DNA from: Escherichia coli
GTDB lineage: Bacteria > Pseudomonadota > Gammaproteobacteria > Enterobacterales > Enterobacteriaceae
Reading direction: 5' to 3' (one strand)
Assembly: GCF_030384885.1 (NCBI RefSeq)
Contig: NZ_CP128615.1
DNA: 64,000 nucleotides
Positions within the stretch are counted from its first letter, which is position 1. Every line of letters begins with the position of its first letter. The position numbers and the translations under genes are program-made. Positions 1 through 64,000 of the stretch are shown piece after piece. A model generated the notes under the pieces. It was not told the DNA's origin and did not search any database. It saw nothing but the letters and a program-made list of their open reading frames with translations.

Positions 1-2
1 AG

Positions 3-3505: not shown

Positions 3506-3547
3506 TCCCGTAATAATTTCCGTGACGGAGACGACAGACATGAATGG

Positions 3548-8401: not shown

Positions 8402-8417
8402 GTTTCACCTCAGCGCC

Positions 8418-14758: not shown

Positions 14759-14773
14759 ATGATCTTGCGCCTC

Positions 14774-16537: not shown

Positions 16538-16553
16538 AGTTATCCGTTGCCTC

Positions 16554-20231: not shown

Positions 20232-20249
20232 TCGGGAGGCTCCCTGCTC

Positions 20250-20843: not shown

Positions 20844-21430
20844 TCCATTACCTCAATCAAATCTTCCCGGCCCAGACGAACTAACCAGTCTTTAACTTCT
20901 GGCATTAGGTAAACAGGTTGTATTTTCTTTGTCCTGCTATCACTCAGGTAGCCACTATCAACCAGTGCCTTAATTGCGTTGTTACCCATTTTTTTGACAG
21001 TTGAGTCAGAAAAACCGCCAAGCTCAGCATATGCCCGCACTCTCGTGTCATAAAACTCAGACCATGCATCAGCGGTTAAAGAGGGTTTATAGGTGCGACG
21101 AGCTTCGGCTAAGGTAAGTCGCATAAAATAAGCGACAACCGGAGAATGAATGAGTAATGACATCATCAGCATTTGGACATAGGCACGTTCACTCGCGGCT
21201 AAAAGATCAGTCATAAACTCATCACCCAGGCCTTCAATACGCCAACGGATTGTTCTGGCATAACGAATAGCCGTCTGACCGGATTTTTTCTGAAGAACAT
21301 TTTGCTCAACGATCAGCGACTTCCACTCATCTTCTGGAAGTTTTTTCAATAGCGATTCTGCGATTATTCTAGATTCAGTTATCAATAAACTGCCTCCGAT
21401 AAGATCGCCTAAATATTCTTTTATATTCAT
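20831..21430 (-). CDS. brxA: BREX BrxA (DUF1819)
   Basis: 199-aa ORF first structural gene of operon; size and position typical. Confidence 0.8.
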   Translation of the reverse strand: MNIKEYLGDLIGGSLLITESRIIAESLLKKLPEDEWKSLIVEQNVLQKKSGQTAIRYARTIRWRIEGLGDEFMTDLLAASERAYVQMLMMSLLIHSPVVAYFMRLTLAEARRTYKPSLTADAWSEFYDTRVRAYAELGGFSDSTVKKMGNNAIKALVDSGYLSDSRTKKIQPVYLMPEVKDWLVRLGREDLIEVMECTI

Positions 21431-21439
21431 AAATTCATC

Positions 21440-22366
21440 TCACGATTCGCTATATCCAGGAGCGAGTGCAGCATTGTCAACGCCGTATAGTGCTTCTGGA
21501 TTTTTAAGTGCTAAATGGAACTCTCGCCCATTGCTCTTACAATTCTTTGAACAATCGATATTCCATAAACGCAGTAAATATCCAGCGAACGCAGCTCTTA
21601 TCTCTACACGCAACCTATTGTTTTCCATTGCGTAGTCCATCGATACAGCTTCTGGATGTGCTAGTTTTGGATGAGGTATCAGCTCTAGCTCAACGATTCG
21701 GTTCCATTGCTTATCCCACTGAAGAGTCTCAACTTCGTCGTTAACCTCATCCTCTAACAACTCAACTTCACTTATTCTGGTTAAAACAAAATCCCTAAAT
21801 TCTCTAAGCTTTCTATCGAATGCTCGGACATGCCATCTCAAGCCATTGTCAATCAGGGTATGAGGAACTATTTGCCTGCTCCCATGACCACTCGACAATG
21901 AGGTGTACTCAATATTAATCACAGCGCGCTTATGTATGGCTTCACTAATAGCCGCTACAACTTCCAATTTCGGCTTATTGAGATGGAATGGTGCTTCACA
22001 AGCCATAGGTGGCCTGGCCTTGCCAAGAAAGCCATCACCGAACCCTTGGCTTATCGTCGCAAGAGTTCGAACAACGTCATAATCAAACAACGGCTGGAAT
22101 GCGCTCGTCTTCAAGTGCACTCTGCGCTTTTCGTCATACATAACGTTGTTAGGAGCCAACTCTTTGTACCGCGCAAAATCTTGTGTTGCCACAGACGGCG
22201 CTACGCTAAATCGCTCGGTTAAATAACTACGCCCAGCTTCACCTTTAAATAACAAAGTGAAATCAATATGAGCGAGTCGTTCTCTCTGTGCTTGGCTAAG
22301 CTCTTCAAGTCCAGTGTTGTCTTGCACTGTCAGCCTCTCAATCCATCTGGGACAAGCCCTAATCAT
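21440..22366 (-). CDS. brxR: BrxR-type WYL-domain transcriptional regulator
   Basis: 308-aa ORF upstream of brxA; WYL-like core (RWHVRAFDRKLREFRDF); true start may be an internal Met. Confidence 0.75.
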   Translation of the reverse strand: MIRACPRWIERLTVQDNTGLEELSQAQRERLAHIDFTLLFKGEAGRSYLTERFSVAPSVATQDFARYKELAPNNVMYDEKRRVHLKTSAFQPLFDYDVVRTLATISQGFGDGFLGKARPPMACEAPFHLNKPKLEVVAAISEAIHKRAVINIEYTSLSSGHGSRQIVPHTLIDNGLRWHVRAFDRKLREFRDFVLTRISEVELLEDEVNDEVETLQWDKQWNRIVELELIPHPKLAHPEAVSMDYAMENNRLRVEIRAAFAGYLLRLWNIDCSKNCKSNGREFHLALKNPEALYGVDNAALAPGYSES

Positions 22367-45597: not shown

Positions 45598-46099
45598 GTC
45601 TGTGTTGTAAAATGGCGCCGAAAGCCCGGCGTAGCCGGTTGCCGGGCTATAAATTCTGCCACCCTACCCCCTGCCCTGATTAGCCTTAACTCGCGAACAG
45701 CAATGAAGAAGTCAAAGTAATCCCTTTTAACCCCGGTGAGCGGGCTTTACGGCGTTTACGACGTAAAGGGCGTGATTTCCGGGGCCTAAGCGGCGGCAGC
45801 TTGCTGCTGACGCTTAGGGGGATGTTCATCAACTATTTCAGCGACACCAGGGAACTTAACACGGTAGCTGCAAAGCCCTAATCCCGCTCACCGCCACGCA
45901 GCTGCCGTACGTCCCCCACGGGGGTGCGCAGTGCTGCGCGCGGGAACGGCGGCCCGTCTGCGGGACGCGGCGCCGTACTGCGCGTTAGCGGCCGCACGCG
46001 GCCGGTTACGGGGGACACTCCGCCATACGACCAGCGACCCGCTGAGCTGCACAATCCACAGATAACACAAGCTACATACATGTCGATATGGGAATCGGC

Positions 46100-47789: not shown

Positions 47790-49700
47790 TCTGGATTATC
47801 GTCACGCTGTTAAATATGTCGCGGTAGGGATACCCGTTACCGGATACCCCCCGCACAGATCCCGGCGTGCGCGATTTACGCACCGGGCTCCTGCCTCGGG
47901 TGTCTGGCGGTGAACCGCTCCACAGGCCATGGATGAAGAACCCGAACCCTTGGTAGCCATGCGGCTGCCAGTTTGTTTGCTTTCGTCCAGGTCGTATCAT
48001 CCTTCTGGCTCCTGCGCCTGAGCGCCCGGCGCCAGAGGTTTGTTACGTGTGTCCTGAACTTCTGCATGGTGGGGAAGTTGCCCGGTACCGAGTGATAGTT
48101 CAGGTATCCCTGAACCACTCTCCTGAGCCATTTTCCCTGTTCGGGGATTGAGTAATGCCAGCGCCTTCGCAGACCGTCTTTGATGGCTTTCAGAGTTGCC
48201 GTCATCCGATCCCGGCGGGTCTTTCGTATCAGCATGAACCTGCCGTTGCGATCTTTCCCGCTGATGTGCGTGAACCCGAGGAAGTTGAACGTTTCTGGTT
48301 TGCCTTTTCCCCTGATGGCACGGTTTTCGGCAGCGAAGCGGCCGAACTCCATCAGACGGGTTTTCTCCGGGTGAACCGTGAGTCCGAACTCCCTCAGTCT
48401 GCGCTGCATGGCTATACGGAAGCGCCGGGCATCGTATCGTTTGTCGAACCCGATGACGATGTCATCGGCGTATCTGACCATTACCACATTGCCTGTGGCA
48501 TAGCGACGTCGCCACTGATGCGCCCACAGATCGAAGACGTAGTGGAGGTATATGTTTGCCAGCAGCGGTGAGATGACCGCACCCTGTGGGGTGCCTTCCT
48601 CCGTTGCTCGCCATTGACCCTCCTCCAACGTCCCGGCTGTGAGCCACTTACGTATGAGCCTGATTACGCTCCGGTCGCCGATCCGATGCTCTGTGAACCT
48701 GATCAGCCATTCGTGGCTCACCCTGTCGAAGAACTGACTGATGTCGGCATCCAGTACCCAGTTTACGTTAGTGCGTACCAGCCCTGTGGCCAGTGCGTCC
48801 AGTGCATCGTGCTGGCTTCGCCCGGGTCTGAACCCGTATGAGAACCCCATAAAGTCGTTTTCATAGACTGCGTTCAGGATTTTCACCAGCGCATACTGGA
48901 CGATCTTGTCCTCCAGCGAGGCGATGCCGAGCGGGCGTTGTTTTCCATCCGCTTTTGGGATGTAGTGACGCCTGCCGGGCTGCGCCCTGTAGCTGCCCTA
49001 ATGTAGCCTCCGGTGCAGATCTGTTATGTTGTTCTTCATGTTTCCGGCGTAGTCCATCCACCTGATGCCATCCACTCCGGCGGCCGCTTTCCTGCTCAGG
49101 GAGAGGAATGCGGCTTCCAGTGCTTCGACTGTCAGCAGGTGGAACAATGCTGTAAACCGTTCTTTCTTCCGCTGCTTCGCAGCTTCCCGCACGCGTGACA
49201 GCCTCTGTGACATGCTTTCCCGGCTCTGTGTCCGGCGCATGTGTGGCTGTTCCGCGTTCCCCTTGGCCCCGCTCCTTCGCTCCACTGACTCCGCTCCTTT
49301 CGGGTTGTTCGCCTGCTTCGCCGCTACTATGAGCGAGTCCGACTTCTCCTCTCCGTACATCACCGGCTATGACTCCTCGTCTTCCCGGTGCGGGCCGTCT
49401 CCGACACTGGCAGATGGTCAGAGGGGAGATCTCCCGGTTCCCGCGTAGAGATCGTATTGACATGCCAGGGTCTCAGACCCCGCCGGGTCCATGTGGCACT
49501 CGCAGTATCGCACCCTATGATGTTGCCTTCCGTTAACAGTACAACGTCGGCACCCGGTAATTTAATATACATTTCGTGGCTCAATGGCTGGCCTGTCAAC
49601 ACCCCTGTCAACGCTTCGCCCCATACCTCGCGGTATGCAACGCATGACTCGGGGACCTTGTGGATTGCTGGTCCTTCAATGGTCGGGGACTTTCACCCCT
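47790..49700 (-). mobile_element. bacterial group II intron (boundaries approximate)
   Basis: intron-encoded RT/maturase ORF; domain V-like hairpin in the reverse complement of 47845-47880; 5' boundary not pinned. Confidence 0.6.
47876..49363 (-). pseudogene. group II intron reverse transcriptase/maturase, interrupted by one in-frame TAG
   Basis: two same-frame ORFs (48998-49363 and 47876-48886) separated by a TAG at 48998-49000; RT motifs ...GVDGIRWMDY..., ...FSYGFRPGRSQHDAL..., ...YADDIVIG... Confidence 0.75.
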
Positions 49701-49727
49701 TGATCTCTACCGGTCTCCCGGTGAACA

Positions 49728-49743
49728 CTGTATGTATAACCAG
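49728..49743 (+). promoter_or_regulatory. LexA (SOS) box upstream of umuD
   Basis: CTGTATGTATAACCAG (CTGT-N8-CCAG, one mismatch to the CTG-N10-CAG consensus) 26 bp upstream of the umuD start. Confidence 0.6.
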
Positions 49744-49768
49744 TAAAATTAGAGTGTCAGGAGGAAAG

Positions 49769-50200
49769 ATGAAACTACAACTTTTCAGCACCGGGAAAGA
49801 ACTCCCGCCACAGGCCCATCCATTGTTTGCCGATCTGGCCAGCTGCGGTTTTCCCAGCCCTGCTGCTGACTATGTCGAGTCCGATCTGGATCTCCATGAT
49901 TACTGCATACGGCATCCGAGCGCGACGTACTACCTGCGTGCCAGCGGAGACAGCATGGCCGACGGCAGTCTGTACAATGGCGATCTGCTGGTTGTGGACA
50001 GTGCTGAAAAGCCGCGGCACGGCGATATCGTTGTCGCCAGCATGCAGGGGGAGTTTACGGTGAAACGGCTTCTGCTGACGCCGCGACTGACGCTGCAGCC
50101 CATGAATGCCTCCTGGTCGCCGATTTATCCTGATCCCGACGAGCTGGATATCTTTGGCGTCGTCACGCATATCATCCACCGCCCGAGGGAGATGTACTGA
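49769..50200 (+). CDS. umuD: UmuD-like SOS mutagenesis protein (LexA-like peptidase S24)
   Basis: 143 aa from [10 protein letters not shown]... with RBS AGGAGG; Ser-Lys dyad region (SGDSM...K); the ORF-track start at 49388 is an upstream extension. Confidence 0.85.
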
Positions 50201-51471
50201 TGTTTGCCCTGGCCGATGTGAACAGCTTCTATGCCAGCTGTGAACGTGTTTTCCGCCCGGATTTGAAAGGAAAGCCGATAGTCGTCCTGAGCAACAACGA
50301 CGGGAATGTAATCGCTCGCAGTGCCGAGGCGAAGCCCTGGATCAAAATGGAAACTCCGTGGTTTCAGATAAAAAACGAAAGATACCCGGAAAAAATATAT
50401 GCGTTTTCAAGTAACTATGAACTTTATGCCTCGATGTTGGCGCGCGTGATGAACAGCCTGGAGGAACTGGCCCCCAGAGTGGAACAGTATTCAATTGATG
50501 AGATGTTCCTCGATTTGACCGGCGTGGAGCACTGTATGGAGCTTGAGGACTTCGGCCGGCAGCTGCGTCAGCACGTGTATGACTGTACCCACCTGACCAT
50601 TGGCGTGGGCGCCGGACCAACGAAGACCCTCGCAAAATCAGCCCAGTGGGCCTCAAAAGAGTGGAAACAGTTTCGTGGCGTACTTGCTCTGACCAGGGGA
50701 AATCCGCAGAGAACGCGGAAACTGCTTTCACTGCAGCCGGTTGAAGAAATCTGGGGGGTGGGTAACCGTATTGCACGCAAGCTGAATGTACTGGGCATTA
50801 AGACCGCGCTCGATCTCGCCCTGACGAACCCGGCCTTCATCCGCAAAAATTTTTCTGTGGTCCTTGAGCGAACGGTACGGGAACTGAACGGGGAAAGCTG
50901 CCTTTCGCTTGAGGAAGCCCCTCCGACGAAACAGCAAATTGTCTGCAGCCGCAGTTTTGGCGTGAAGATCACGGAGTACGAGTCACTCCGTCAGGCTATC
51001 TGTCAGCACGCAGAGCGGGCCTCTGAAAAACTGCGTAAAGAGCACCAGTATTGCCGGCATATTTCCGTTTTCATCAAAACGTCTCCGTTCGCCATTAAAG
51101 AGCCTTACTACGGCAACGTGGCTACGGAAAAACTTCTTACACCCACTCAGGACACCAGGGACATCATTGCAGCCGCTACAACGGCTCTGGAGCGTATCTG
51201 GAGGGATGGGCACCGGTATGCCAAAGCCGGAGTTATGCTGAATGACTTCACCGGCTCCGGCGTTTCGCAGCTGCAGCTGTTCGACGAACGCCCGCCACGC
51301 CCTTACAGTGCTGAGCTGATGAAGGTTCTGGACGGGATCAACAACTCAGGGCTGGGTAAAGTATGGTTTGCGGGGCGGGGTATTGCCCCGGAATGGCAGA
51401 TGAAACGGGAGATGCTTTCTCCTGCTTATACGACACGATGGTCAGATATTCCTTCAGCGAAACTGGCGTAA
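50200..51471 (+). CDS. umuC: UmuC-like Y-family DNA polymerase V catalytic subunit
   Basis: 423-aa [44 protein letters not shown]... Confidence 0.9.
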
Positions 51472-51481
51472 AACTTTGGCG

Positions 51482-51550
51482 ATTTCACCTTGAAATTCTC
51501 AGCCTAAACTGCCTAATTACAATAAGTTAGATGTGAAATCGCCATGGCGA
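51482..51550. promoter_or_regulatory. putative P1-type parS centromere (heptamer ATTTCAC and hexamer TCGCCA boxes)
   Basis: GATTTCACC...GTGAAATCGCCATGGCGAAAT immediately downstream of parB. Confidence 0.5.
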
Positions 51551-51552
51551 AA

Positions 51553-52530
51553 TTATTGACTCAAATTTCTGTCAAGGACCTCGTTGATAGCCTTGTCCAG
51601 TTCATCCTGAATCACTTTTGACATACGGCTAAACTCATAAGTCAGCGTACGCCCTTTCACACGCTTACGCGCGAACTTGTCCTTTTCTTCAAAAGACCAG
51701 AGTGGGGAAACCACTGACTTTTCCTTGGGAGATGGATCTATCAATGCCTGAGATGCCTGAGAAATCAGCTTCAGTATACTGGCTTTCTGTTCGTCTTCTG
51801 GTCGCTCGCCTTCACTCAAAATTGCATCGAGCTGAGCTGATACAGACTGAATGAGTTCTTCAGGCGTTAATCCCTTTTCACTGAGTTTTTCATTAACTTC
51901 TAAAAGAAGTTTATAGTCACTAAACGATAGCTCCGACTGAACCGGGAACAGAGAAATCAAGTCTTGCGGTACGGCCGCCGCCTGCAGCGCCCTGGTAACT
52001 TTAGCTTGAGATAACCCCTCCAGTTCAGCAATTTCCTTTTGATTAAATCCGGACTCTTTAAGAGCGATCAATCTCAGGCCAATCTCCCGAAGATTATGTT
52101 CTTTAGCTGTCTGGATATCTTTAGCCAGTTGGCGAGCTTCATCAGCTGATAAATGCTCTTCGGTAACCATTACATCAAGGCCTGTACGGACAAAAATTGC
52201 TGAGGCTCGCCGTCTTGAACCATCCAGTATCTCAATCCTTTCACTTTGCTTAATACCAATACAGGGAAAGAACTGCTGAAACTTAATCGTCTGGATAATG
52301 GATTTCAGGGATTCCCTGGTCAGTGCAAGTTGATCTCTTCCGTTGTTTTCCTGGTTTACGAAGGTCTTACTTTCAACTTCAGATGCAGGCACCCGAACAA
52401 ACCTGAACGTTACCTTCCTGCCGGTTTTTAAGGTAAATACCTGGCTTCTACCGGTGTCCGTCATTTCCGCAATTGACGCCTGGGTATTTAACTGTCTGCC
52501 GATGGTTTTTCTTTTCTCATTCGACATCAC
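51553..52530 (-). CDS. parB: ParB/SopB-family partition protein
   Basis: 325-aa ORF downstream of parA, overlapping its stop. Confidence 0.8.
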   Translation of the reverse strand: MMSNEKRKTIGRQLNTQASIAEMTDTGRSQVFTLKTGRKVTFRFVRVPASEVESKTFVNQENNGRDQLALTRESLKSIIQTIKFQQFFPCIGIKQSERIEILDGSRRRASAIFVRTGLDVMVTEEHLSADEARQLAKDIQTAKEHNLREIGLRLIALKESGFNQKEIAELEGLSQAKVTRALQAAAVPQDLISLFPVQSELSFSDYKLLLEVNEKLSEKGLTPEELIQSVSAQLDAILSEGERPEDEQKASILKLISQASQALIDPSPKEKSVVSPLWSFEEKDKFARKRVKGRTLTYEFSRMSKVIQDELDKAINEVLDRNLSQ

Positions 52531-53732
52531 ATACCTCCGTTAGTACGAATGAACTCGATGCGATCAAAGACTGCCTTCGCAAAGTCTTCCGCTGCTGATT
52601 TTGCGCTTTTTAGTGCCTCTGTACTTCCATCATAGGTTGCTGGATTTGCTGAAATAACTGTGTCAAAAGTCTCCCCACAACGTTCGAAACCATCCAGTCT
52701 TGGCAGAACCATGTCTAGCATATCGGCACCGAAAACCTCTTTGGCCTGACTATGGCAAATTTTGTGATCAGACTTGTTCAGGATCTTGGACATGAAGCCG
52801 ACATTACCGATGAGATTGCAGGTGTGCCCATCCATTTCGATGGAATCTATGAGGGCAGGGAGGCTGGCCACAAACTTCAGGGAAGAATGAAAATCAACCG
52901 TCGCCGGTGGAAGAGGGGTCAACATCAGGTCTGCCGCCCCAATGCAGTTTTTCAGGAACGCATCAAGGTGAGGACCACTATCAAGGAAAATAAAGTCGTA
53001 GTCATGCTGGAGCTTGTCGATAATGTTCTCTTTAAGCACCGCATGAATATTTTTCCCTGGCAGATGTTCTTCACACAATCCCTTCCAGCCTTCAGCAAGG
53101 AATGCATCGTCAATGGAAGCGGGGATTACATCAACACCAGGGATAATAGACGGTACTATAAAATCGGAAAGTAATTCTTCACGAGACACGTTCTGGAGCA
53201 TGGCCTGAGCAGCCGTATTTTCAACCAAGCCCACTGAATTCTCATGGCTCAGGAACATTGTCAGAGATGCCTGCGGATCGAAATCGATGGCCAGAATACG
53301 CAGGTCTTCGAACAGAAGCTGAGGATGAGCTCGAAAAGCATGTGATAATGAAGCGGTAGAAACTGTCTTGGAACCACCACCTTTAAGATTACATACAAAA
53401 ATCGTAAAGGCTTTATCGAAGCGATCCCTGTACTTCGGTACTTTACGATGGTTATACAGATCGATGACATTCTGAATCGTCATCGCGTATTTCATCGTAT
53501 TACCAGAAGGTTTCTTTTTAAAAATGTAGCCACCGGCTTCCATTTCGGACACAGCATACTCAACACTGCCTTTACTGAGCTTAGGCAGCTTATACAGAGC
53601 GGCTTTGCTGTATTCCTGATAGAACTCGGTAAGCTTCAATTCCTCTTTTTGCTGTCGGATACTTTCGCTCAAAGATGTCAGAAGCTTACCTGCACGTGTA
53701 GCGACTTTCCGTAACTGCTCAATATTGTCCAT
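52527..53732 (-). CDS. parA: ParA/SopA-family type Ia partition ATPase
   Basis: 401-aa ORF; deviant Walker A (CNLKGGGSKTVSTASL) after an N-terminal DNA-binding extension. Confidence 0.85.
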   Translation of the reverse strand: MDNIEQLRKVATRAGKLLTSLSESIRQQKEELKLTEFYQEYSKAALYKLPKLSKGSVEYAVSEMEAGGYIFKKKPSGNTMKYAMTIQNVIDLYNHRKVPKYRDRFDKAFTIFVCNLKGGGSKTVSTASLSHAFRAHPQLLFEDLRILAIDFDPQASLTMFLSHENSVGLVENTAAQAMLQNVSREELLSDFIVPSIIPGVDVIPASIDDAFLAEGWKGLCEEHLPGKNIHAVLKENIIDKLQHDYDFIFLDSGPHLDAFLKNCIGAADLMLTPLPPATVDFHSSLKFVASLPALIDSIEMDGHTCNLIGNVGFMSKILNKSDHKICHSQAKEVFGADMLDMVLPRLDGFERCGETFDTVISANPATYDGSTEALKSAKSAAEDFAKAVFDRIEFIRTNGGM

Positions 53733-54125
53733 TTATCACCTCATGACGTTTTTTGTCATTTTGAACAAAAAGTGTCATGTTGCAAGAAAAAAATCATATT
53801 GTTTTGATTTCGCTCTCAACAGAAGGGGGATGAAGCTCGACGGGCGTGCTACTAAATCACACTGCAGCAACACGCAGACGCACTTTTGACCATCAACAGC
53901 AACTCATACAAAAGGGCTTTGAGAAAGGTATTCAACTTGCAAGACAGGAGAGTCATTCAGAAGGATTCTGATTTTAGTTACGACCAGTGCAATGCTGAGC
54001 CTTATGTATCAGCGCTCGCCGCAGCCATGTAACCGAGCGTAGCGAGCGAACTGGCGAGGAAGCGAAGAGGAACCGTTCCGGCAGATAGCTCTTACGCTCA
54101 GCACAAGAAGAGTTTTCCATCCTCT

Positions 54126-54545
54126 GTGGGAAACAGGTCAACTTTAATGGACGCTCCGGACTATGGGAAACAGGTCAACTTCGCGGACGGCCCGGACTAT
54201 GGGAAACAGGTCAACTTCACGGGCGGCCGGGAGTGTGGGGAACAGGTCAACTTCGCGGACGGCCCGGATTATGGGAAACAGGTCAACTTCGCGGGCGGCC
54301 GGGACTGTGGGAAACAGGTCAACTTTGCAGACGGCCCGGACTGTGGGAAACAGGTCAACTTCGCGGGCGGCCGGGAGTGTGGGGAACAGGTCAACTTCGC
54401 GGACGGCCCGGACTAAGGGAAACAGGTCAGCTTCTCGGACGGCCCGGACTATGGGAAACAGGTCAACTTCTCGGACGGTCGGGAGTGTGGGAAACAGGTC
54501 AAGTTAGGCAAGCACTATGGGAAACACAGCAAGTTCAGTATCCCC
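54126..54545. repeat. tandem array of about 11-12 copies of a 36-bp repeat (putative repA iterons / copy-control array)
   Basis: unit TATGGGAAACAGGTCAACTTCGCGGACGGCCCGGAC; immediately downstream of repA. Confidence 0.7.
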
Positions 54546-54592
54546 CCATATGTCAGCAACAAACTAAGGGGGGAGGAAATAAAAATTACAGA

Positions 54593-55459
54593 CTATTGTT
54601 TTTTATCAAGAAAATTAAACAGCAAGCGACCATCTTCTTCAGTGGTATATGTTACCTTTAATGGCGTCTTCTCATTAATTTTCTTCAGAGCAGGTTCCAG
54701 GAAGGTACGCTTCATTTCAGCAATATTGTTTTTCTGCGAGGCAGGGAGCATAAACCTTTCACATAACCAGTCATGTGTGGTGATCCAGACACCAGTGCTC
54801 CGGAACTGACACAGGCTTTCATAAAGCCGGATGACACGAACACTATTAAGCTGGCCACAGTCATAGAGAGAATAGGTAGTGAACTGGGAGGTTAAGCCGA
54901 CCAGGAATGGCATGACCTTGTAGTTAAATTCAATCTGCCAGGAACCCCGGCCTCGCTTCATTCCTGCTTCAGCCAGCCACGGACGTTTAACTTCTTCAAA
55001 CTCACCTTCTTTTGGATAAAAGGTAACCGTTGATTCGCCCAGAGCATTTACCCCAGCCTTCACATCACGACTGGCGACAGACGTAGCGACATTGAAGTAT
55101 TTGACGTAATCGGAAACGCTGATTTTGAAGAGCGGCAATACGTCAGAGTCATCTTCCTGGCTGTCATTAAAATAGGCCTGCATGAGGCATAACCACAGCA
55201 CACGTTTTGCCTGAAGAGGCAGGTAATATGCAGCTTCGGTCAATTCGTTAGATTGCTTTATACTGGCGCGTTTTTTAAACGTTTTAGTAGCTGGCAAGAG
55301 TGCTTGAGTATCCATTTCAATGCCTATGGGTAAATTTTTACCCACCCATAATGACAGTGAAAACAGAAATTGCAAGCTATCGCGATACTTATCCACCGGA
55401 AAAATCTGCACTTTATCCACAAGTGGATAATTGAGAACTGAACTTGACCTCTTTCCCAT
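54593..55459 (-). CDS. repA: Rep_3-family replication initiator (RepFIB-type)
   Basis: 288-aa ORF; N-terminal IKQSNELTEAAYYLPLQAKRVLWL typical of Rep_3. Confidence 0.85.
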   Translation of the reverse strand: MGKRSSSVLNYPLVDKVQIFPVDKYRDSLQFLFSLSLWVGKNLPIGIEMDTQALLPATKTFKKRASIKQSNELTEAAYYLPLQAKRVLWLCLMQAYFNDSQEDDSDVLPLFKISVSDYVKYFNVATSVASRDVKAGVNALGESTVTFYPKEGEFEEVKRPWLAEAGMKRGRGSWQIEFNYKVMPFLVGLTSQFTTYSLYDCGQLNSVRVIRLYESLCQFRSTGVWITTHDWLCERFMLPASQKNNIAEMKRTFLEPALKKINEKTPLKVTYTTEEDGRLLFNFLDKKQ

Positions 55460-55700
55460 AGCTTGTTGATGCGTATCCCATAGCTTGTTGACACAAAACC
55501 CACTGATACGTGATTAATTTCCCATATTATGTTTACCAGTTGCCCATACAGGCCCCCTCTCAGGCCGCACTGTACGCGGCTTTCAGGCTCCCTAAAAGAT
55601 GTAAAATAAAGAAAAAGAATAAAAAAGTACTTTATAAAAATATGCCCGTGGATAAGTGGATAACCCCGAGGGGAGGTGATTTTTCAGGCATTGAGCGTAA
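55460..55700. other. putative oriV region (DnaA boxes, short direct repeats, AT-rich tract)
   Basis: TTATCCACA at 55414-55422, TGGATAAGTGGATAA near 55640, two copies of TCCCATAGCTTGTTGA at 55460-55500. Confidence 0.5.
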
Positions 55701-56221
55701 GCAGAATTTATAAGTTTTGTTCCCTGGTGCTTCCTCGCTCACTCGGGGCTTCGCCCTGTCGCTCGACTGCGGCGAGCACTGCTGGCTCGATCATATCCGT
55801 GGCCGGAAGATACTACTCCTCCCCCGAGTCGCTCTCCAGAGCCGGCTACAGCGAGACAACCCGCACGAAGATTTCTATCGTCCCTGCAGACATATTCGAA
55901 TCGTTTTTATTAACCCTGGCTTCCGTCGTGACAGAACACTACGTCCTGTAAAAGGGGGACTAAGGCCCCTGAATCACACACCTGAATAATGCGGAGTTTT
56001 ACGATAATGTCATTGCTGGAAACTTTCCTGACCGCTTCTCAGGGGGCAACAATCCTGTTCCTTGCCATGCTGATCTACTGGCAAAAGCGATAAATCCAAG
56101 CGGGCTGGCCTTTGGCCAGCTTCGCTGTATAAGGGGAAAAATGCGGCATATCCAGACATTTCACTAGGCAATTTGAATTCAGATATCTATGCTTGGGATC
56201 CGGTCAACAGGAGGTAACAAG

Positions 56222-56479
56222 ATGAAACTTGAAACTATACAGATAGATAATACCGTAAGGAGTGGTCTTAATTCTTTCACTGACGGGGTGATTATTCGTG
56301 ATACAAAGGTATTGATCACGCTCAATCTCCCGGATGGACAGAAAACCACTATTGAGGGGGAATGGCGGCATATGTCGGACGCCAACAGGTTGTCAGAACG
56401 TATTACGATGCTTCAGCATGCGATCTATGAGCAGTATGAGGAATACAGAGCAGATATTCCCGTCAGCTGGTCCAGATAA
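56222..56479 (+). CDS. hypothetical protein (85 aa)
   Basis: RBS AGGAGG then MKLETIQIDNTVRSGL...; no recognisable motif. Confidence 0.5.
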   Translation: MKLETIQIDNTVRSGLNSFTDGVIIRDTKVLITLNLPDGQKTTIEGEWRHMSDANRLSERITMLQHAIYEQYEEYRADIPVSWSR

Positions 56480-56536
56480 CGTCTGACAGACCTCCCCGGC
56501 GAGCAGGACGTTCGCCAGCATCATTCTCCTAAGTAC

Positions 56537-57315
56537 TTAAATATTCCCTTTCAGCATGGCTACCGCATCCGCTTCGGGCATCTGAAACTGAACTCGATGC
56601 CGCGCAGCAACATCAAGTGCGAACACCTTCGTATAGACTTCCGTCGAGCTAATCGATTTGTGGCCCATCAGGCTCTGCAAAACCTTCAGTGGTATGCCGG
56701 CATACAGCACATATGCATCGCGTAGGAGTGGCGGAACGTATGCGGGGTGACCGGCACCGAGAATGTCACCCCGTCGACGGCGGCCGCTTCAACCGCTTCG
56801 CCAATCCAGGTCCGTACTGTCCGGTCGGTGATGTCCCAGATGCGGGCTTTCTCTGTTCTGCCGGTACGCTTGTTGCGTCTTTCCAGCGGAATTTTCAGGG
56901 TGGCCACCATCATCTGCAGCTGGCTGACGTAGTGGTGATCGGAAAGCGGAACCAGACGATGAGCCTGGCTACCGGCGGGAGCTCGGCCGGCTGTCCTGGC
57001 CGCTTTTTCGGTGCGCTGCTTAAGCGTGGCCAGCTGCACGAACGGATACGGTGGCACCAGCGAAAAATCCCCCCGGGTCAGCGCCAGCGCCTCGTTGATA
57101 CGTGCGCCGGTGTTCCAGAGGGTTGCCAGCAGCATCTTGCGGTGCAAATCGGGCACATAATGGAGCAGGGCGCTGACTTCCGGTGCCAGCAGGTATTTCG
57201 GTAGTTCATCTTGAACGAGCGCCATCTGGCGCAGGGCCAGCGCGGCGGGATAGTCAATGGCCACCGGCATTTGCGCCGGCTGCTGCGGGTGAGAATATGA
57301 TAAGAGGCCGCTCAT
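56537..57315 (-). pseudogene. tyrosine site-specific recombinase (XerD/ResD-like) with frameshift upstream of the catalytic Tyr
   Basis: ORF 56686-57315 ends ...HTFRHSYAMHMCCMPAYH*; the adjacent frame continues LYAGIPLKVLQSLMGHKSISSTEVYTKVF... Confidence 0.7.
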
Positions 57316-58055
57316 TGGTTTGACATTCCATCAGGTATCACTAATTGATTCCACTCCCTGTTGCGGGTAGCTTCAGCAGCGCGCAGGGCTCTTTCGCGCC
57401 TCCAGACTTTACGAAACACGGAAACTGCAGACCATTCATCATGACCTGTAAGACGTGTTTCGGGCATCCCGGTTGCCTTGCGCAGACGGACGGCAAGAAT
57501 GACAGCGTTGATGCCCAAGCGCGTGAACTGATACTGCCGTTCCCTGAAATAGTCCTTATGCCAAGGAGGGTCGGAGTATTCGGCGGCATATGCAATTGCC
57601 CTGTGGGCCTCATCCTGGAGCACCGGCAGTTCACGGATGCGATACATAAGACGTGGCTCTAAAGTCCGCCAGTCACCGGAGACATCGATCAGATTCAGTT
57701 CAGGGTAATTCGTGACAGCTTTTCTCTCAGGCTGGGGGGCATCATCATCCTGGCCGTCATCCGTCACAACCCGGAAACAACCCTCAGCATACCGTTCAAG
57801 CATGAATACCAACTCGGTGGCAATGTAATGCAGTTCCTTTTTCATTTTATCTTCTGACGCCTGTCTCTCACGCTTAAGCGTGAAATAATGTGTCAGCCAG
57901 ATGCCAGTGAGTGTTATACCCCCAGTAAGCAGGCCAGTGATAAGCCCGGTTGCCACGTTTCCCCAGATCCCCGCCCCTTGATTAATCAGCTGTACGGAAA
58001 CCGGATGGGATGTCGCAGCAACTATACTCTCAGTTGCGGCCTGTATATCAGTCAT
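57312..58055 (-). CDS. hypothetical membrane-anchored protein (one N-terminal TM helix)
   Basis: 247-aa ORF; hydrophobic segment GNVATGLITGLLTGGITLTGIWL; 4-bp overlap with the recombinase start. Confidence 0.6.
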   Translation of the reverse strand: MTDIQAATESIVAATSHPVSVQLINQGAGIWGNVATGLITGLLTGGITLTGIWLTHYFTLKRERQASEDKMKKELHYIATELVFMLERYAEGCFRVVTDDGQDDDAPQPERKAVTNYPELNLIDVSGDWRTLEPRLMYRIRELPVLQDEAHRAIAYAAEYSDPPWHKDYFRERQYQFTRLGINAVILAVRLRKATGMPETRLTGHDEWSAVSVFRKVWRRERALRAAEATRNREWNQLVIPDGMSNQ

Positions 58056-58105
58056 TGATCATTTACCCCTTTATATTCCTGAGAAATCCCGCCCTCTGTC
58101 CGTAG

Positions 58106-58456
58106 TCAGCGGCCGGCAGCCAGCTCTTCAGCCAGTTTCACAAACCTTTTGTGCTCAGTCTGCAGGTAATGGCTGTAAATCCGGGCATCACGTTCTGTCA
58201 GTCCGGATGGATTGCCGGTGAAGTAACGTTGCAGCACCGCAATACAGTGATTGTAGGTATCGAGATCATATTCCCAGTTTCCCAGCTCACCGGCCGCATC
58301 CAGTTCCTGGCGAAACTGCTCGTATTTACGGAGCAGAATGCCAAGACCTAATTCTGTTGCAGCATAAAGATTATTTTCTCCTGGCGCGGAAATCGCATTA
58401 CGGATTTTTTCAAAAGCATAACTGAAATCATTTCTCTCATTGAATGCAGTAAACAT
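58106..58456 (-). CDS. hypothetical protein (116 aa)
   Basis: ORF 50 bp upstream of the membrane protein gene, same strand; no recognisable motif. Confidence 0.5.
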   Translation of the reverse strand: MFTAFNERNDFSYAFEKIRNAISAPGENNLYAATELGLGILLRKYEQFRQELDAAGELGNWEYDLDTYNHCIAVLQRYFTGNPSGLTERDARIYSHYLQTEHKRFVKLAEELAAGR

Positions 58457-58859
58457 GTCCTTTCCTCAGTTGAATAGTTAGCCGTGCAATTTTACCACAC
58501 CTCAATCATCGTCAGATGAGTGCCACTCTGTCGCGACAGTGACTTTCACGAGAGTGATTTTCACATACTAAAATAATAAGCAGCCATATAACAACGTAAT
58601 TAAATTACCTGACGGCCGCTCTGGCCGGATCCGACTTTTATGTTATTCCACAGTTTCCGGAAGTGTACCACGCACACGGAATAACCACAGCGCCCTTTCA
58701 GGGTGGTGAGCGGCCGGTCACGGGGCAGGGGAGGGGCACAACATATATGGTCACTGACAGCTGGAAACACCGCTACATCTTGTGTTTCCGGGCCGCTGCG
58801 CGCCGGCGGGGCTGAATCAGATCCGGAACTGGTGGTTTTCGGATCTGCGGTGGAGAAAT

Positions 58860-59026
58860 GAGAAAACAGGATATGCGCAGCATATCCACATGCCACGCAT
58901 CTGCATAGGGCAGACATACGCATATGTCAGTCATCTGCATATGTTACACCTATACAGACCAGTCCGGCAGGCATATACTGCACATATGTACTCACACATC
59001 ATGCATGATCAGCCGGAGGAACATCC
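58860..59026 (+). promoter_or_regulatory. putative promoter/operator of second vagC copy (CATATG / CATCTGCATA repeats)
   Basis: repeat pattern related to, but diverged from, 2700-2861. Confidence 0.4.
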
Positions 59027-59257
59027 ATGCGCACAGTTTCGATATTTAAAAACGGCAATAACCGCGCCATCCGTCTGCCCCGGGACCTGGATTTTGACGG
59101 CGTCAGCGAGCTGGAGATCGTCCGGGAAGGGGACAGCATCATTCTGCGTCCCGTCCGGCCGACCTGGGGCTCGTTCGCGCAGCTGGACAGGGCCGATCCG
59201 GACTTTATGGCGGAGCGTGAGGATGTGGTCAGCGATGAAGGACGCTTTGAGCCATGA
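59027..59257 (+). CDS. vagC: VagC/VapB-type antitoxin, second copy
   Basis: 76-aa protein identical to the first copy; two synonymous DNA differences noted. Confidence 0.9.
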   Translation: MRTVSIFKNGNNRAIRLPRDLDFDGVSELEIVREGDSIILRPVRPTWGSFAQLDRADPDFMAEREDVVSDEGRFEP

Positions 59258-59349
59258 AGAAAACCTGGATGCTCGACACTAACATCTGCTCGTTCATCAT
59301 GCGCGAGCAGCCGGCAGCGGTGCTGAAGCGCCTGGAGCAGGCGGTGCTG
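59254..59349 (+). pseudogene. vagD: vagD (PIN toxin), first ~32 codons only, truncated by IS21-family element
   Basis: MKKTWMLDTNICSFIMREQPAAVLKRLEQAVL then IS terminus TGTCAACGCC... Confidence 0.85.
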
Positions 59350-59407
59350 TCAACGCCACGATGTTTGACCGTTATTTGCCATTTTCATGCCCGCTAAGAT
59401 ACTTTCG

Positions 59408-60191
<784 letters not shown>

Positions 60192-60195
<4 letters not shown>

Positions 60196-60833
60196 AACAG
60201 CTCCTCATAGGCACTCAGTGGTCGATGTTCCACCTGACTGACCTGCTGCCAGAGCGGGGCGTGATGCTCCGGCACTGTCTGCCAGCCAGACGATGCCGGA
60301 CAGAGGCGATGTGAGGCCACCAGTTTCTCATTACTGTAGATCCGCAACTCGTCATCCAGCGATATTCGTATCGATACTGGCTGACCACACAGCGCTTCGG
60401 GAACGCTGTAACGATTACCACCAACCTCGATATAGCTGTCCCAGGACACATGGCGGATGTCGAAGTAACTGGTATCGAAGTCCGTATCCGGTAACGGCTG
60501 CAGATGTTCCTGCTCCAGCGCGAAGCGCTGTTCCGGCGTTTCTTTGAACTGGCGAAGCTCCCGTTTGTCAGCCACATCGGCTATCCATTGCTCCAGTTGT
60601 TGATTAACATGAGTGAAGCTGTCGAACCTGCGGTACCGGACGAAGAAGTTCTCCTTGAGGTATTTCACCATCCGCTCAACCTTACCTTTTGTTCTGGCCC
60701 TGCGTGGACGGCATGCCCGTGGCAGGAAGTTATAGTGGTCGGCCAGCAACAGGAATCCGGAGTTGAACACGACTTTCCCGTTGTTATTCTTCAGCACCGC
60801 AGCCTTCTGGTTATCAACCAGCACCGTTTTCAC
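60192..60833 (-). pseudogene. istA: IS21-family IstA transposase, C-terminal 213 codons only
   Basis: ORF ...[23 protein letters not shown]...; overlaps istB start. Confidence 0.75.
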
Positions 60834-61020
60834 ACAACCACCGAATTTGATCCCTGAAAACTGTCAGCGCTGCGAGGACGAAGAAAGTATTACGGCTAAA
60901 GCCGTAATACCTCCCCATCCAGCTTCAAGCTATGTAGAAACTTATGTGGGTAGAGCAGTCCCGACAGGGCAGTACCGCATTGACAGGCCGTCAGGGCCAC
61001 TTACGAGCTTGTATGACAAG

Positions 61021-61058
61021 GGGGGCCGTCTGGATATAGCGAATTATTGTACGGTAAG
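61021..61058. repeat. Tn3-family-like 38-bp inverted-repeat sequence, isolated
   Basis: GGGGGCCGTCTGGATATAGCGAATTATTGTACGGTAAG, about 80 percent identical to the IR at 34791-34828. Confidence 0.5.
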
Positions 61059-61394
61059 CCTTTTTTGAACAGCCTTACCTATTGCTATAGAGGGGAACTC
61101 CTACGTTATACGCCGCTTTCAGGGGATTCGACCTTAATGAGACAACTCAAATATGATCGACAACTTAAACGCGATAGTTGCTGATAAAATCAATCCATTA
61201 CGCGTTTCAATTGATTAAATAATGCACTTAATGTACAAAAATTCCCGATCTCAAAACTGAACCCTAAAGATACCAGGCATCTCCCCCAGGAAGCGCCCTC
61301 ATGCGTTTTCCTGTTCCGCCCCTGCCACCTACCTTCTGTTTCATACTTGTTGTATTATTGTTTTTGTTTTCAATCCCCAAGGAGACGTCGCTAT

Positions 61395-61562
61395 ATGACT
61401 GTGCGGGAGACAGAGGAAAACATTGAACAAATCTTCCCTGAGCTTTCGAACTTAATTGATATTATTAATAAATGGCTTTCCCATGGAAACATTGATCCTG
61501 AACTGGCACACTTCATCATTTATCTTCTTGATTACCTAACCACCACACACAAAAGCATATAA
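61395..61562 (+). CDS. small hypothetical protein (55 aa)
   Basis: MTVRETEENIEQIFPELSNLIDIINKWLSHGNIDPELAHFIIYLLDYL...; followed by a strong terminator; RBS weak. Confidence 0.35.
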   Translation: MTVRETEENIEQIFPELSNLIDIINKWLSHGNIDPELAHFIIYLLDYLTTTHKSI

Positions 61563-61677
61563 AAATTTTCCTTGCACATCCATTTTTTTGCGAATATTAT
61601 TATTCCTGCTGAATATGATTCAATATCGCACGCTACTCATCCATCCCAGGATAATGAGTACATAGGTTGAAGTTTCA

Positions 61678-61705
61678 ACACCCCCATTACGGGGGTGTTT
61701 TTTTT
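61678..61705 (+). terminator. rho-independent terminator
   Basis: ACACCCCCATTACGGGGGTGT followed by T8. Confidence 0.7.
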
Positions 61706-61823
61706 ACCAATAAACACAAATCACACCATCGCCATACTCTGTTTGCCAGACATCGATTGGTAAATATGCGTAACTCGCTATAATACAAAAAGAAAAATCA
61801 GAACCAGAAACCAGTTTCCAGAT

Positions 61824-61850
61824 AAAAAACACCCTCCCGAAGGAGGGGAC
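61824..61850 (-). terminator. rho-independent terminator (minus strand)
   Basis: reverse complement of CCCTCC-CGAA-GGAGGG hairpin followed by a T-run. Confidence 0.6.
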
Positions 61851-62180
61851 AGACACATTCATATTTCCCAAAACAGGAATTTTTATTTTTATGACGCATT
61901 AATGAAGTTACTTCATCTCCAGTAGATTAACTTCATTTAAAGTGGCGATCAATCATATTTATTACGACTCTAAACTATTACAACAACCACAATAAGATAT
62001 CACCTCAAATATAAAAGATAACTCTTACAAAAACGTTCCGAAAACAAAAAATACAGATAAACACCAATAAAAAACAGAAAACTCTTACACATTTAAAGAT
62101 GGTAAAATAATATAGAACTGTTAGTCTAATGGAGAAGGCGCATCTGATTCAGAGCAATCTATTGCGAAGAATCAGAGTAA

Positions 62181-62219
62181 CAGGGCCCCATGATATAATC
62201 ATGGGGCCCTGTTGCTTTT
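62181..62219. terminator. strong near-perfect hairpin, possibly a bidirectional terminator
   Basis: CAGGGCCCCATGA-TATAA-TCATGGGGCCCTG followed by TTGCTTTT. Confidence 0.6.
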
Positions 62220-62463
62220 ACAGATGTAAAAACGACCAATCATTTAACATCTGTTATCGGCACCGCCCCGGACGGGTTCGGCGCAAATATGGTATGGTAC
62301 CAGCCCGGCAATTCACCTGCCGTGCAATCTGACGAAGCAGTACCGGCGTATGCAGATATATCGTCCAGACATATCTGCCGCATTCAGGCGGTGAGTAAAG
62401 CCTTCTCTCTCAAAAGAGGAGCAACAGTTATCCACAGATTCTGGGGATAACTGCGAAAAGAAT

Positions 62464-62604
62464 ATGTGCCAGGAAAGTCGGCTCCCGGGAAAAAGACCGC
62501 TGGCGGCGCAGCTGCTGGATACGAAAGCTGAGCTGAAAGGATCCCGGGAGGACGTCCGTAAACTTCAGTCCCTGGCCCGTCATGACGGGAAGGTGAAAAA
62601 GTGA
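62464..62604 (+). CDS. small hypothetical protein (46 aa)
   Basis: MCQESRLPGKRPLAAQLLDTKAELKGSREDVRKLQSLARHDGKVKK; stop overlaps GTG start of the next ORF (GTGA); below the ORF-track cutoff. Confidence 0.3.
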   Translation: MCQESRLPGKRPLAAQLLDTKAELKGSREDVRKLQSLARHDGKVKK

Positions 62605-63242
62605 ATGCGGATACCTGGACCCGCCTGCAGGCCTTCCGACATGCTCTGGAGCTGACTTCCTGTGAGGCTTCTCTCACCGCCGGGTATGATCACCTGAAGG
62701 ATTTCCCGGCCGGTTGCAGCGAGCTGGCCAGCCAGACGCTGACTGATTATCTGACGGAAGACGGCAGCAACCTGTACTCCTGTATTGTCGGTATGCAGTG
62801 GGATAATGGTCCTGGCAGATACGGCCACGTCATTGCCGCCCCTGCCAGGGACTATATCGACCTGACCCTTGATCAGTTTCCAGGCTATCATAACCGGATT
62901 GTGGCAGAGCCCGTTGAGTCCGGCGGACAGCTCGCGGCAGACCTCAACAGGGAGCCTGCCATCAGTACAGCTGATGGAATAGTGGCCAGCGCATCAGATA
63001 AGGTTAATTACATTACTGAACAGAAAAATCGCCAGCCAATGGTGATCATTACAGAATGTTACAAGCTGATCAGAATAACGGCAAGATTTATACCAATGTG
63101 CCAGTCATCTCAACTCTTCCAGCACCAGGTATTCCCTCGCTTATTTATCATTTCAGACGTTGGCTCCTGCAGTTTGTCCAGGAACACCTTAGATCGTTTA
63201 GCTACTGACTGGAAGGTGACACTGTCCATCCTGTCGCTATAG
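62601..63242 (+). CDS. hypothetical protein (GTG start; 3' part may be spurious)
   Basis: 213-aa ORF; N-terminal ~150 aa look protein-like; 3' end overlaps a convergent ORF. Confidence 0.35.
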   Translation: MNADTWTRLQAFRHALELTSCEASLTAGYDHLKDFPAGCSELASQTLTDYLTEDGSNLYSCIVGMQWDNGPGRYGHVIAAPARDYIDLTLDQFPGYHNRIVAEPVESGGQLAADLNREPAISTADGIVASASDKVNYITEQKNRQPMVIITECYKLIRITARFIPMCQSSQLFQHQVFPRLFIISDVGSCSLSRNTLDRLATDWKVTLSILSL

Positions 63243-63430
63243 GGCTTGATATAAACCTGGCAGGCAAGGGATCTGGTTAACTCCTTTCCTTCCATAAAGT
63301 GTTTGAAGATCCAGAGATACGTATCCACAAGCTCCAGCCCTGTACTCTGTGTCCCCGACTGGAAGACCTGCGGTTCAGCTGGTATTTCCGTTACATCCAT
63401 GACCGGTGTCTGCGCAGCAGTGCCTGTCAT
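63110..63430 (-). CDS. hypothetical protein (106 aa)
   Basis: ORF convergent with and overlapping 62601-63242; no recognisable motif. Confidence 0.3.
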   Translation of the reverse strand: MTGTAAQTPVMDVTEIPAEPQVFQSGTQSTGLELVDTYLWIFKHFMEGKELTRSLACQVYIKPYSDRMDSVTFQSVAKRSKVFLDKLQEPTSEMINKRGNTWCWKS

Positions 63431-64000
63431 CAGGATCCTGTCACTCTTTCGACCGACAGCTTATGGCATACAGTTGGGCTCGTAAGATCCAGAGTCAATA
63501 ACTGACAGGGTTTATTCTGTCATCCTCCGGCAACAAAGGCATATACGATATTCACTTATTTTGTCGGCCCAACGGCTTTTTACAGTAGCTCGTTTTGCCC
63601 AACTGATGCTACAGCTCTTTGGTTTGCTTCATCACGGATATCAGCTCCGACACAGGCACAGCTGACTGGTTGCAACGTCTGCACTTCTCTGGACCTGAAA
63701 CGTCAATTATCAGGATTCTGACGATTAGTCTTAAGACTGTCGGTAAATTAAGTGATGCCAGTTGTCAGGATATTCATGGAGCCAGTCTGCATGCGCCTCT
63801 GGCGTTGAGACAAACATATGAAGTGTATTTCGGATATGACTGTACGCTCAGGAAGTACGGCAGATTCCGTCAAAAATTACCTGTAAAGACAGACTTCAGA
63901 AAAAACAGTGCTCGCCGCAGACCGGTGACCGGGCGAAGCCCGCGAACCGGCGAGGAAGCGCAATATATCTGTAGTTACAGTGAGCAGGTACGCCCTGAAG

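Follow-up and report, generated by a model that had tools for sequence, protein, structure and literature searches.

vagCD has been described as a toxin-antitoxin module of IncR plasmids. In the IncR backbone order given by Calia et al., rfsF and resD come first and vagCD follows, and the same authors report that some IncR plasmids have inserts "just downstream of rfsF" that part vagCD from the backbone; rfsF-associated mosaicism of IncR plasmids is already published. The rfsF site itself is described as an (imperfect) inverted repeat of 10 to 14 bp with a 6- to 8-bp spacer. For the F plasmid, two rfsF sites were mapped by the authors of the pEC958 study to the beginning of RepFIA, from nt 45922 on, and IncI1 plasmids exchange gene sets at rfsF in what is called Delta/Col switching. 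Antitoxin genes that stand alone are likewise common, with Horesh et al. reporting a median of nine orphan antitoxins per Klebsiella pneumoniae strain, derived from degraded toxin-antitoxin pairs. An anti-addiction role has been put forward for such orphans, in which the antitoxin sits on a different replicon from the toxin and persists when the toxin's replicon is lost; this idea is published and largely untested.

Here we analyzed a 64,000-nt stretch of Escherichia coli DNA (the window) that carries vagC twice, once in an intact vagCD operon and once in front of a vagD gene that is cut short at the terminus of an IS21-family element. We conclude, with a probability of roughly three in four (0.77), that the second locus is an inherited old scar and that an F plasmid and a complete IncR plasmid were fused at the rfsF spacer upstream of vagC, presumably by a ResD-type reaction.

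The orphan vagC, the vagD stub, and the IS21-family remnant

The intact IncR vagCD operon, with promoter allele P1, occupies positions 2696-3505 on the plus strand (vagC, 2862-3092; vagD, 3089-3505) and was assigned from its Pfam PIN domain and its match to the IncR plasmid NZ_CP024857. The second vagC gene (59027-59257, plus strand) is also intact and encodes a 76-aa VapB-family antitoxin, based on translation identity, NCBIfam model NF040493, and VapB homologs in the PDB. When the two translations were compared, all 76 residues were identical, as the sequence-only reading had claimed. Over vagC plus the 5' stretch of vagD that both copies retain, two nucleotides distinguish them, and both changes are silent (2933 T/C and 3115 C/T). 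Against NF040493, the orphan VagC scored 92.5 bits (cutoff, 60), and the PDB holds VapB homologs of the protein, in keeping with a small DNA-binding antitoxin of the AbrB/SpoVT type. PADLOC returned no match for VagC, VagD, or the stub, and Rfam returned no RNA family match in the orphan vagC region. Small overlapping open reading frames in 58600-59282, on the minus strand and in the other frames of the plus strand, were without support and were treated as spurious.

The intact VagD is a PIN-domain protein (Pfam, E = 1.5e-14) and a homolog of Shigella and Salmonella VapC, endonucleases specific for tRNA(fMet) whose structures were used in the alignment. In this alignment the acidic residues of VagD are D8, E46, D103, and E124, which we take to be catalytic from the residue assignment in the Shigella VapC enzyme. 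In the second copy, homology to vagD ends at 59347-59349, i.e., after 94 to 96 nt. This end point bears out the earlier observation that vagD stops after about 32 codons at an IS21-family terminus, TGTCAACGCC. Aligned with intact vagD, the stub (vagD'; 59254-59397, plus strand) consists of 94 nt of native vagD (59254-59347) and 15 IS-derived codons, and the resulting 47-aa open reading frame has residues 1 to 32 in common with VagD before it runs through the IS codons and terminates at 59397. The 3' portion of vagD that this copy lacks (320 nt) has no second occurrence anywhere in the 64-kb window. Since the stub retains only D8 of the four PIN acidic residues and is without E46, D103, E124, and a complete PIN fold, it is no nuclease. 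With its partner cut after nt 94, this vagC has no functional PIN toxin gene directly downstream, and the locus at 59027-59257 is an orphan antitoxin, not a toxin-antitoxin pair. The orphan copy has no addiction activity of its own and cannot cause post-segregational killing, its toxin gene being a 94-nt stub.

The stub runs into an IS21-family remnant (59348-60845, minus strand) that represents ~1.5 kb of a 2.13-kb element and was delimited by alignment with pSS_046, blastn, NCBIfam models, PGAP notes, and the ends of an intact copy. Its terminal inverted repeat starts at 59348, and vagD is therefore interrupted after its nt 94. The sequence TGTCAACGCC is a genuine IS21-family end, since the intact 2,130-bp copy in E. 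coli plasmid pEC012-2 has the same start; that copy ends with GGCGCTGACA and has a 4-bp TTTA target duplication on both sides. It is located at the 3' end of a related vapB gene and represents an independent insertion. By blastn, window positions 59346-60845 are 97.4% identical to the annotated IS21-like element of Shigella sonnei pSS_046, and both the IstB and the IstA fragments match IS21 models (NCBIfam), which places the element in the IS21 family, whose members combine an istA transposase gene and an istB helper ATPase gene with terminal inverted repeats that start with TG. Compared with the element of pSS_046 and pEC012-2 (istA-istB, ends TGTCAACGCC...GGCGCTGACA), the window copy has the same terminus and matches at this identity over 1.5 kb, but it is a remnant that has lost the 5' 44% of istA and the second terminus, ~630 bp in total. 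What is left of istA is its 3' 56% (60192-60845, minus strand), and istB (59408-60195, minus strand) is a pseudogene with a 13-bp deletion and a TAG nonsense codon. With istB broken, istA partial, and one end lost, the element is dead.

The same junction occurs in public plasmids. A 301-bp junction probe matched 10 PLSDB plasmids from E. coli and Shigella at 100% identity and full coverage, and a 651-bp probe matched 6 of 5,426 complete RefSeq E. coli genomes, also at 100% identity; the carriers of the orphan block are plasmids of several countries and hosts. In the GTDB representative genomes scanned, neither the orphan junction nor the fused junction described below was found. On one carrier, p14EC033d, PGAP annotates vapB, a VapC toxin PIN-domain ribonuclease that is incomplete and missing its C terminus, and two pseudogenes, istB ("frameshifted; internal stop") and istA ("missing N-terminus"). 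The vagD/IS junction is thus real, already known, and annotated. The sequence-only reading had allowed that related plasmids might expose it as an assembly artifact; instead, 10 PLSDB and 6 RefSeq plasmids carry it at 100%. Its alternative reading of the locus as a relic of toxin inactivation is supported, but the inactivation did not occur on this molecule. Nor did a second vagCD of this plasmid lose its toxin here, since the truncation pre-exists in p14EC033d-type plasmids that are 99.9% identical. Given that the carriers are 100% identical over the junction, their conservation is explained by recent shared ancestry, without measurable purifying selection, and this identity, together with the two silent SNPs between the alleles, means that no dN/dS or selection signal can be extracted.

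Reciprocal junctions within an rfsF-like site

The regions upstream of the two vagC copies are only ~75% identical (alleles P1 and P2), and the copies are therefore different alleles and not a recent duplicate. Their flanks trace to two plasmid types. Window positions 1-3184 match p14EC033d 1765-4945, positions 58820-64000 match p14EC033d 4416-9596 at 99.9%, and in F plasmids of the p14EC033d type positions 1-2661 adjoin positions 58832-64000. Positions 2652-11405 and 47841-59349 match the IncR plasmid NZ_CP024857, to which the intact vagCD segment is identical from 2662 onward; in ordinary IncR plasmids, one vagCD joins both of these flanks. The segment at 2664-58829 corresponds to a complete IncR plasmid linearized at rfsF, with vagCD, IS110, BREX, a resistance region, umuDC, parAB, repB, resD, and two hypothetical genes. 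Overall, only a few SNPs and hardly any indels separate the window from its parents. By these alignments, the vagC copies are not a local duplication, and the second copy is a product of plasmid fusion.

Upstream of the orphan vagC lies an rfsF-like site (58819-58848), AGATCCGGAA-CTGGTGGT-TTTCGGATCT(G), with two inverted arms of 10 to 11 bp and an 8-bp spacer. Its reverse complement matches positions 45920-45949 of F plasmid NC_002483, between pifC and ccdA, at 27 of 30 nt. The site lies 1.5 kb from resD, and its 10-8-10 architecture is that of rfsF; the assignment is based on the pEC958 coordinates for F, sequence similarity, and ResD similarity. A scan of the window with the rfsF consensus gave this one match, compared to a chance expectation of 0. 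The inverted repeat was also considered as a terminator hairpin, a reading that was dropped since there is no T-tract and no convergent gene end and the comparison with F pointed to rfsF. At copy 1, a hybrid site (rfsF'; 2651-2678) combines a degenerate F-side left arm, GGATCCGGTTT, with TG and the IncR P1 spacer and right arm. The F-side left arm matches rfsF poorly (7/10), and the hybrid site, with four mismatches to the consensus, was missed by a scan that allowed up to three.

The four sites can be compared directly. A typical IncR site reads ...AGATCCGGAAC TG CCTTT TTTCGGATCT followed by P1, and the p14EC033d site reads ...GGATCCGGTTT TG GTGGT TTTCGGATCT followed by P2. In the window, copy 1 has the F left arm, TG, CCTTT, and P1, and copy 2 has the IncR left arm, TG, GTGGT, and P2. 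The junctions are exactly reciprocal: the parents join the IncR left arm to P1 and the F left arm to P2, and the window joins the F left arm to P1 and the IncR left arm to P2. In a base-by-base comparison, the switch is confined to the 2-bp TG (2662-2663 at copy 1 and 58830-58831 at copy 2), with heterology of 3 nt on one side and 4 to 5 nt on the other. Across 2652-4395, the window differs from NZ_CP024857 at 2659-2661 only, and near the joint it differs from p14EC033d at 58827-58829 only. Since the junctions are reciprocal and confined to the spacer, we infer that the fusion was made by site-specific recombination through a ResD-type tyrosine recombinase acting on rfsF. The spacers of the parental sites differ (CCTTT versus GTGGT), and tyrosine recombinases normally disfavor heterologous spacers. 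Such an exchange must therefore be rare, or it was finished by host resolution of a one-strand exchange.

The IncR resD gene of the window (56537-57315, minus strand) carries a 2-bp insertion (~56708-56711) relative to NZ_CP024857 and encodes a product of 209 aa, compared to 258 aa. The insertion shifts the frame after HSYAMH, and the GH...Y segment with the catalytic tyrosine is lost. Over the 11 kb of IncR backbone at 47841-58830, the window shows no other real difference from NZ_CP024857. The insertion could be a sequencing error, although the window shows almost no other indels relative to its parents. IncR ResD is 92% identical to F ResD. Since the resD of the window is inactive, ResD would have acted before the frameshift or would have come from another plasmid. 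Together with the degenerate left arm at copy 1, the frameshift plausibly prevents resolution and locks the fusion.

We propose that, in an ancestor, vagD was interrupted after its nt 94 by insertion of an IS21-family element, which afterwards decayed, with istB acquiring its deletion and nonsense codon and istA losing its 5' end. The block of rfsF-like site, P2, vagC, vagD stub, and IS21 remnant would then have become fixed in the E. coli/Shigella IncFIB/FIC p14EC033d-type lineage, where it sits downstream of a Gabija-like gajAB pair. Into such an F plasmid, a complete IncR plasmid with P1-vagCD may have integrated by reciprocal exchange within the rfsF spacer immediately upstream of vagC, each product junction thereby receiving one vagC and the copies becoming direct repeats that bracket the IncR segment. 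As to direction, i.e., whether the parents fused or the form seen in the window is ancestral, parsimony alone favors fusion, because IncR-P1 is widespread and the p14EC033d type occurs in 10 records, whereas the fused IncR/F arrangement is absent from PLSDB, complete RefSeq E. coli genomes, and GTDB representatives.

Expected function of the orphan VagC and rival explanations

The promoter/operator region of the orphan vagC (allele P2; 58864-59026, plus strand) was defined by a promoter scan and by column invariance. The scan found the same hexamer pair at both vagC copies, and the hexamer columns are invariant across six loci. In P2, the predicted promoter consists of a -35 element, TATACA (58951-58956), and a -10 element, TATACT (58974-58979), at 17-bp spacing, and a Shine-Dalgarno sequence, GGAGG (59015-59019), lies 7 nt before the orphan vagC ATG. 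Upstream of the hexamers, P2 contains 17-bp periodic units, CATnTnCATAnG (58881-58948), whose first 12 nt are conserved between P1 and P2 and whose last 5 nt are variable. The 17-bp motif has seven matches in the window, all at the two vagC promoters, compared to 0.01 expected, and these units may be operator sites that the two promoters share. The orphan thus appears to remain a complete vagC expression unit, and VagC is probably made from it.

Having the same sequence as the cognate antitoxin, the orphan VagC is expected to bind VagD, and it would also help to repress both promoters via the predicted operator repeats. The resulting 2:1 gene dosage of antitoxin to toxin would buffer, not add to, the post-segregational killing of the IncR module. 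The sequence-only reading had suggested anti-addiction against the VagD encoded at 3089-3505. As in an anti-addiction system, the orphan VagC is a toxin-less antitoxin that matches a toxin encoded elsewhere, but here antitoxin and toxin lie not on different replicons but in one contiguous 64-kb window. Because the orphan and the VagD gene are on one molecule and are lost together, anti-addiction cannot operate here. In principle, an F-borne VagC could protect against IncR VagD before fusion or after resolution. p14EC033d also carries VapC#1 3 kb upstream; VagC is 89.5% identical to the VapB#1 of this plasmid, and VapB#1's toxin is 87% identical to VagD. An F-borne VagC could likewise act on VapC#1.

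A stronger claim would be that the orphan vagC is under selection as a trans immunity or anti-addiction gene against the VagD/VapC of co-resident IncR plasmids, and possibly against the plasmid's own VapC#1, such that IncR plasmids are lost, displaced, or fused without host killing. The vagC open reading frame, ribosome-binding site, promoter hexamers, and operator-like repeats have stayed intact while the adjacent IS decayed, the orphan VagC is the same protein as the IncR antitoxin and resembles VapB#1 at the identity given above, an anti-addiction role has been proposed for orphan antitoxins generally, and the block is present in several countries and hosts. The complete identity of the carriers over the junction nevertheless points to recent descent, two silent SNPs between the alleles are too few for dN/dS, toxin and orphan share a single molecule in the window, and the lineage is rare (6 of 5,426 E. 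coli genomes). We consider this explanation unlikely, and we regard it as improbable that p14EC033d-type F plasmids express the orphan and keep it under selection as a trans-acting immunity gene against co-resident IncR VagD/VapC. If they did, cycles of ResD/rfsF fusion, resolution, and loss with a non-conjugative IncR plasmid would be harmless to the host, the F plasmid would gain a competition edge, and the resD frameshift would be the step that locked one such fusion.

The remaining alternatives concern how the two copies came to lie on one molecule. RecA could have fused the plasmids by homologous recombination through the ~520-bp shared vagC/vagD' sequence, since the repeats (2664-3185 and 58832-59349) hold ~325 bp at 99.4%, ample for RecA, and reviews name homologous recombination as a route to IncR cointegrates. 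A crossover in the coding part, however, predicts the F left arm with P2 at the intact copy and the IncR left arm with P1 at the orphan, which is the reverse of the observed arrangement. The two diagnostic SNPs and the two promoter alleles remain with the right-hand flanks, and the switch is a TG with heterology on both sides, far under the length that RecA needs, all of which makes this route very improbable. We give still less credence to a duplication of vagCD within the plasmid, with the second toxin gene knocked out in place by IS21 under selection against the toxin, the course of events that the sequence-only reading implied. Although the coding sequences are nearly identical and vapBC loci have been targets of IS21-like elements on more than one occasion, as the independent insertion in pEC012-2 shows, the promoter regions are only ~75% identical, and the whole orphan-IS-downstream block pre-exists elsewhere with a different left flank and without the IncR part. 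Moreover, the IS is decayed and shortened, and the distal part of the second vagD is nowhere in the window. Finally, an assembly artifact that joined the IncR and F plasmids via the shared vagC repeat would account for the fused arrangement being in no PLSDB, complete RefSeq E. coli, or GTDB representative record. Such a mis-join would be expected in the identical coding stretch, whereas the observed switch is a 2-bp point in the rfsF spacer with reciprocal junctions; the window otherwise shows few SNPs and almost no indels relative to the parents, and the orphan junction has been assembled independently in at least 10 plasmids. An artifact is accordingly hardly credible.

Relation to known plasmids and modules

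The orphan vagC is an ordinary scar, already known and annotated, and the locus itself is of little weight. The informative part is that an IncF::IncR fusion at rfsF, beside vagC and with a disabled resolvase, is recorded here at base level. The fused IncR plasmid is non-conjugative, its cargo includes a full BREX system as well as a tet(A)/aph(6)-Id resistance region, its F partner is related to conjugative IncFIB/FIC plasmids, and the resolvase frameshift could render the fusion permanent. The fusion thus bears on how resistance and phage defense cargo become transferable. It also cautions that "duplicated" toxin-antitoxin loci on large plasmids may be fusion junctions, not functional redundancy.

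The closest relatives of the orphan locus are p14EC033d (NZ_CP024151.1) and nine related E. coli/Shigella IncFIB/FIC plasmids, in which the junction is 100% identical (301 to 651 bp). The p14EC033d-type locus is 99.9% identical to the window over the rfsF spacer and the 5 kb that follow it, and its gajAB left flank corresponds to window 1-2661. There the orphan is directly preceded by the gajAB flank, whereas in the window a 56-kb IncR plasmid lies between them and the left flank of the orphan is the IncR resD side.

Compared with the vagCD operons of IncR and ColV/ColM-type F plasmids (NZ_CP024857, p1658/97, and pPK8568), the orphan has the same VagC, the same operon start with a 4-nt overlap, the same place to the right of rfsF-resD, and the same promoter architecture of 17-bp repeats, but its toxin gene is down to 94 nt. 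Like the orphan antitoxins and anti-addiction modules described elsewhere (the chromosomal CcdA of Erwinia chrysanthemi versus F CcdB and those of the K. pneumoniae survey), it is an intact antitoxin with no toxin in cis, and it shares with the surveyed orphans an origin from a degraded toxin-antitoxin pair that keeps its context on the non-toxin side. Unlike the anti-addiction CcdA, the orphan VagC has its matching toxin on the same molecule. With the ResD-rfsF systems of F, IncI1, and IncR plasmids, the site in the window shares the inverted-repeat core, the 8-bp spacer, and an exchange point located at the site. In contrast to the usual ResD-rfsF exchange, two whole replicons, IncR and IncF, are joined here across heterologous spacers, the left arm of one site is degenerate, and the resD gene of the window carries a frameshift.

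Possible module exchange upstream of vagC

An rfsF-like site, the kind of sequence at which ResD recombines, lies directly upstream of each vagC copy (2651-2678 and 58819-58848). In F, IncR, FIB(K), and ColM-type plasmids, these sites have conserved arms, but the five central spacer bases are variable (GGGGT, CCTTT, GTGGT, GTATT, and GGAGT). The right-hand sequence, including the vagC promoter allele, switches exactly from the spacer bases onward. Since the spacer varies and the right flank changes at the same point, these sequence comparisons suggest that modules have been swapped recurrently at the rfsF-like site upstream of vagC.

Each vagC promoter carries four to five periodic 17-bp units (2713-2780 and 58881-58948), which consist of CATnTnCATAnG followed by 5 variable nucleotides. 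In the IncR variant CP138680, exactly two of these units (34 nt) are gone from the vagC promoter. The units are probably operators for VagC or VagCD.

The resD frameshift and other differences from IncR plasmid NZ_CP024857

A 2-bp insertion at ~56708-56711 in the IncR resD gene (56537-57315, minus strand; 92% identical to F ResD) results in loss of the catalytic tyrosine. This insertion is the sole real difference from IncR plasmid NZ_CP024857 across 11 kb of IncR backbone. It may keep the rfsF-mediated fusion locked; alternatively, it may be a sequencing error. Apparent differences in the IncR iteron array upstream of repB (54124-54501) were rejected as real, as they reflect alignment shifts inside its ~36-bp repeats. 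Downstream of vagD, NZ_CP024857 carries a group II intron (ltrA) that is absent from the window (~4391-4395); a group II intron D1-D4 RNA match adjoins umuD (49468-49693, minus strand).

Defence genes and candidates

A Gabija-like pair on the plus strand comprises GajA (3-1565; E = 1.5e-101) together with a GajB-like helicase that is short, at 340 aa (1550-2572; E = 1.7e-47). A vapBC operon lies directly upstream of such a pair in F-type and FIB(K) plasmids. The minus strand of the IncR part encodes a type I BREX system with its full gene set (6326-22366; WYL regulator, brxA, brxB, brxC, pglX, pglZ, and brxL), and a HEC-05-family gene is embedded between brxC and pglX (14774-16537). Between resD and rfsF, a gene for a 247-aa hypothetical protein (57312-58055, minus strand) gives a PADLOC hit to the candidate defence family PDC-S67 (E = 3.6e-45) and belongs to a conserved module of resD, two hypothetical genes, rfsF, and vagCD.

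IS21-like elements and the downstream stretch

The IS21 remnant in the window is truncated at 60845, and among the bases just past it is TGTCAGCGC, similar to an IS21-type end in inverted orientation. In the F plasmid p14EC033d, the next 1.7 kb (60846-62600) is without an annotated gene; a UptR small RNA match falls at 61608-61699 (123 bits). Between the remnant and the RepFIB gene lies a gene for a 213-aa conserved hypothetical protein (62601-63242, plus strand; WP_089533208.1 in p14EC033d), for which NCBIfam and PADLOC gave no match.

An independent, intact IS21-like copy, flanked by a TTTA duplication, is found in pEC012-2 (NZ_CP119579.2, 3225-5354), where it has inserted at the 3' end of a related vapB and parts this gene from an intact vapC. 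Given this separate insertion, this IS family has struck vapBC operons on at least two occasions.
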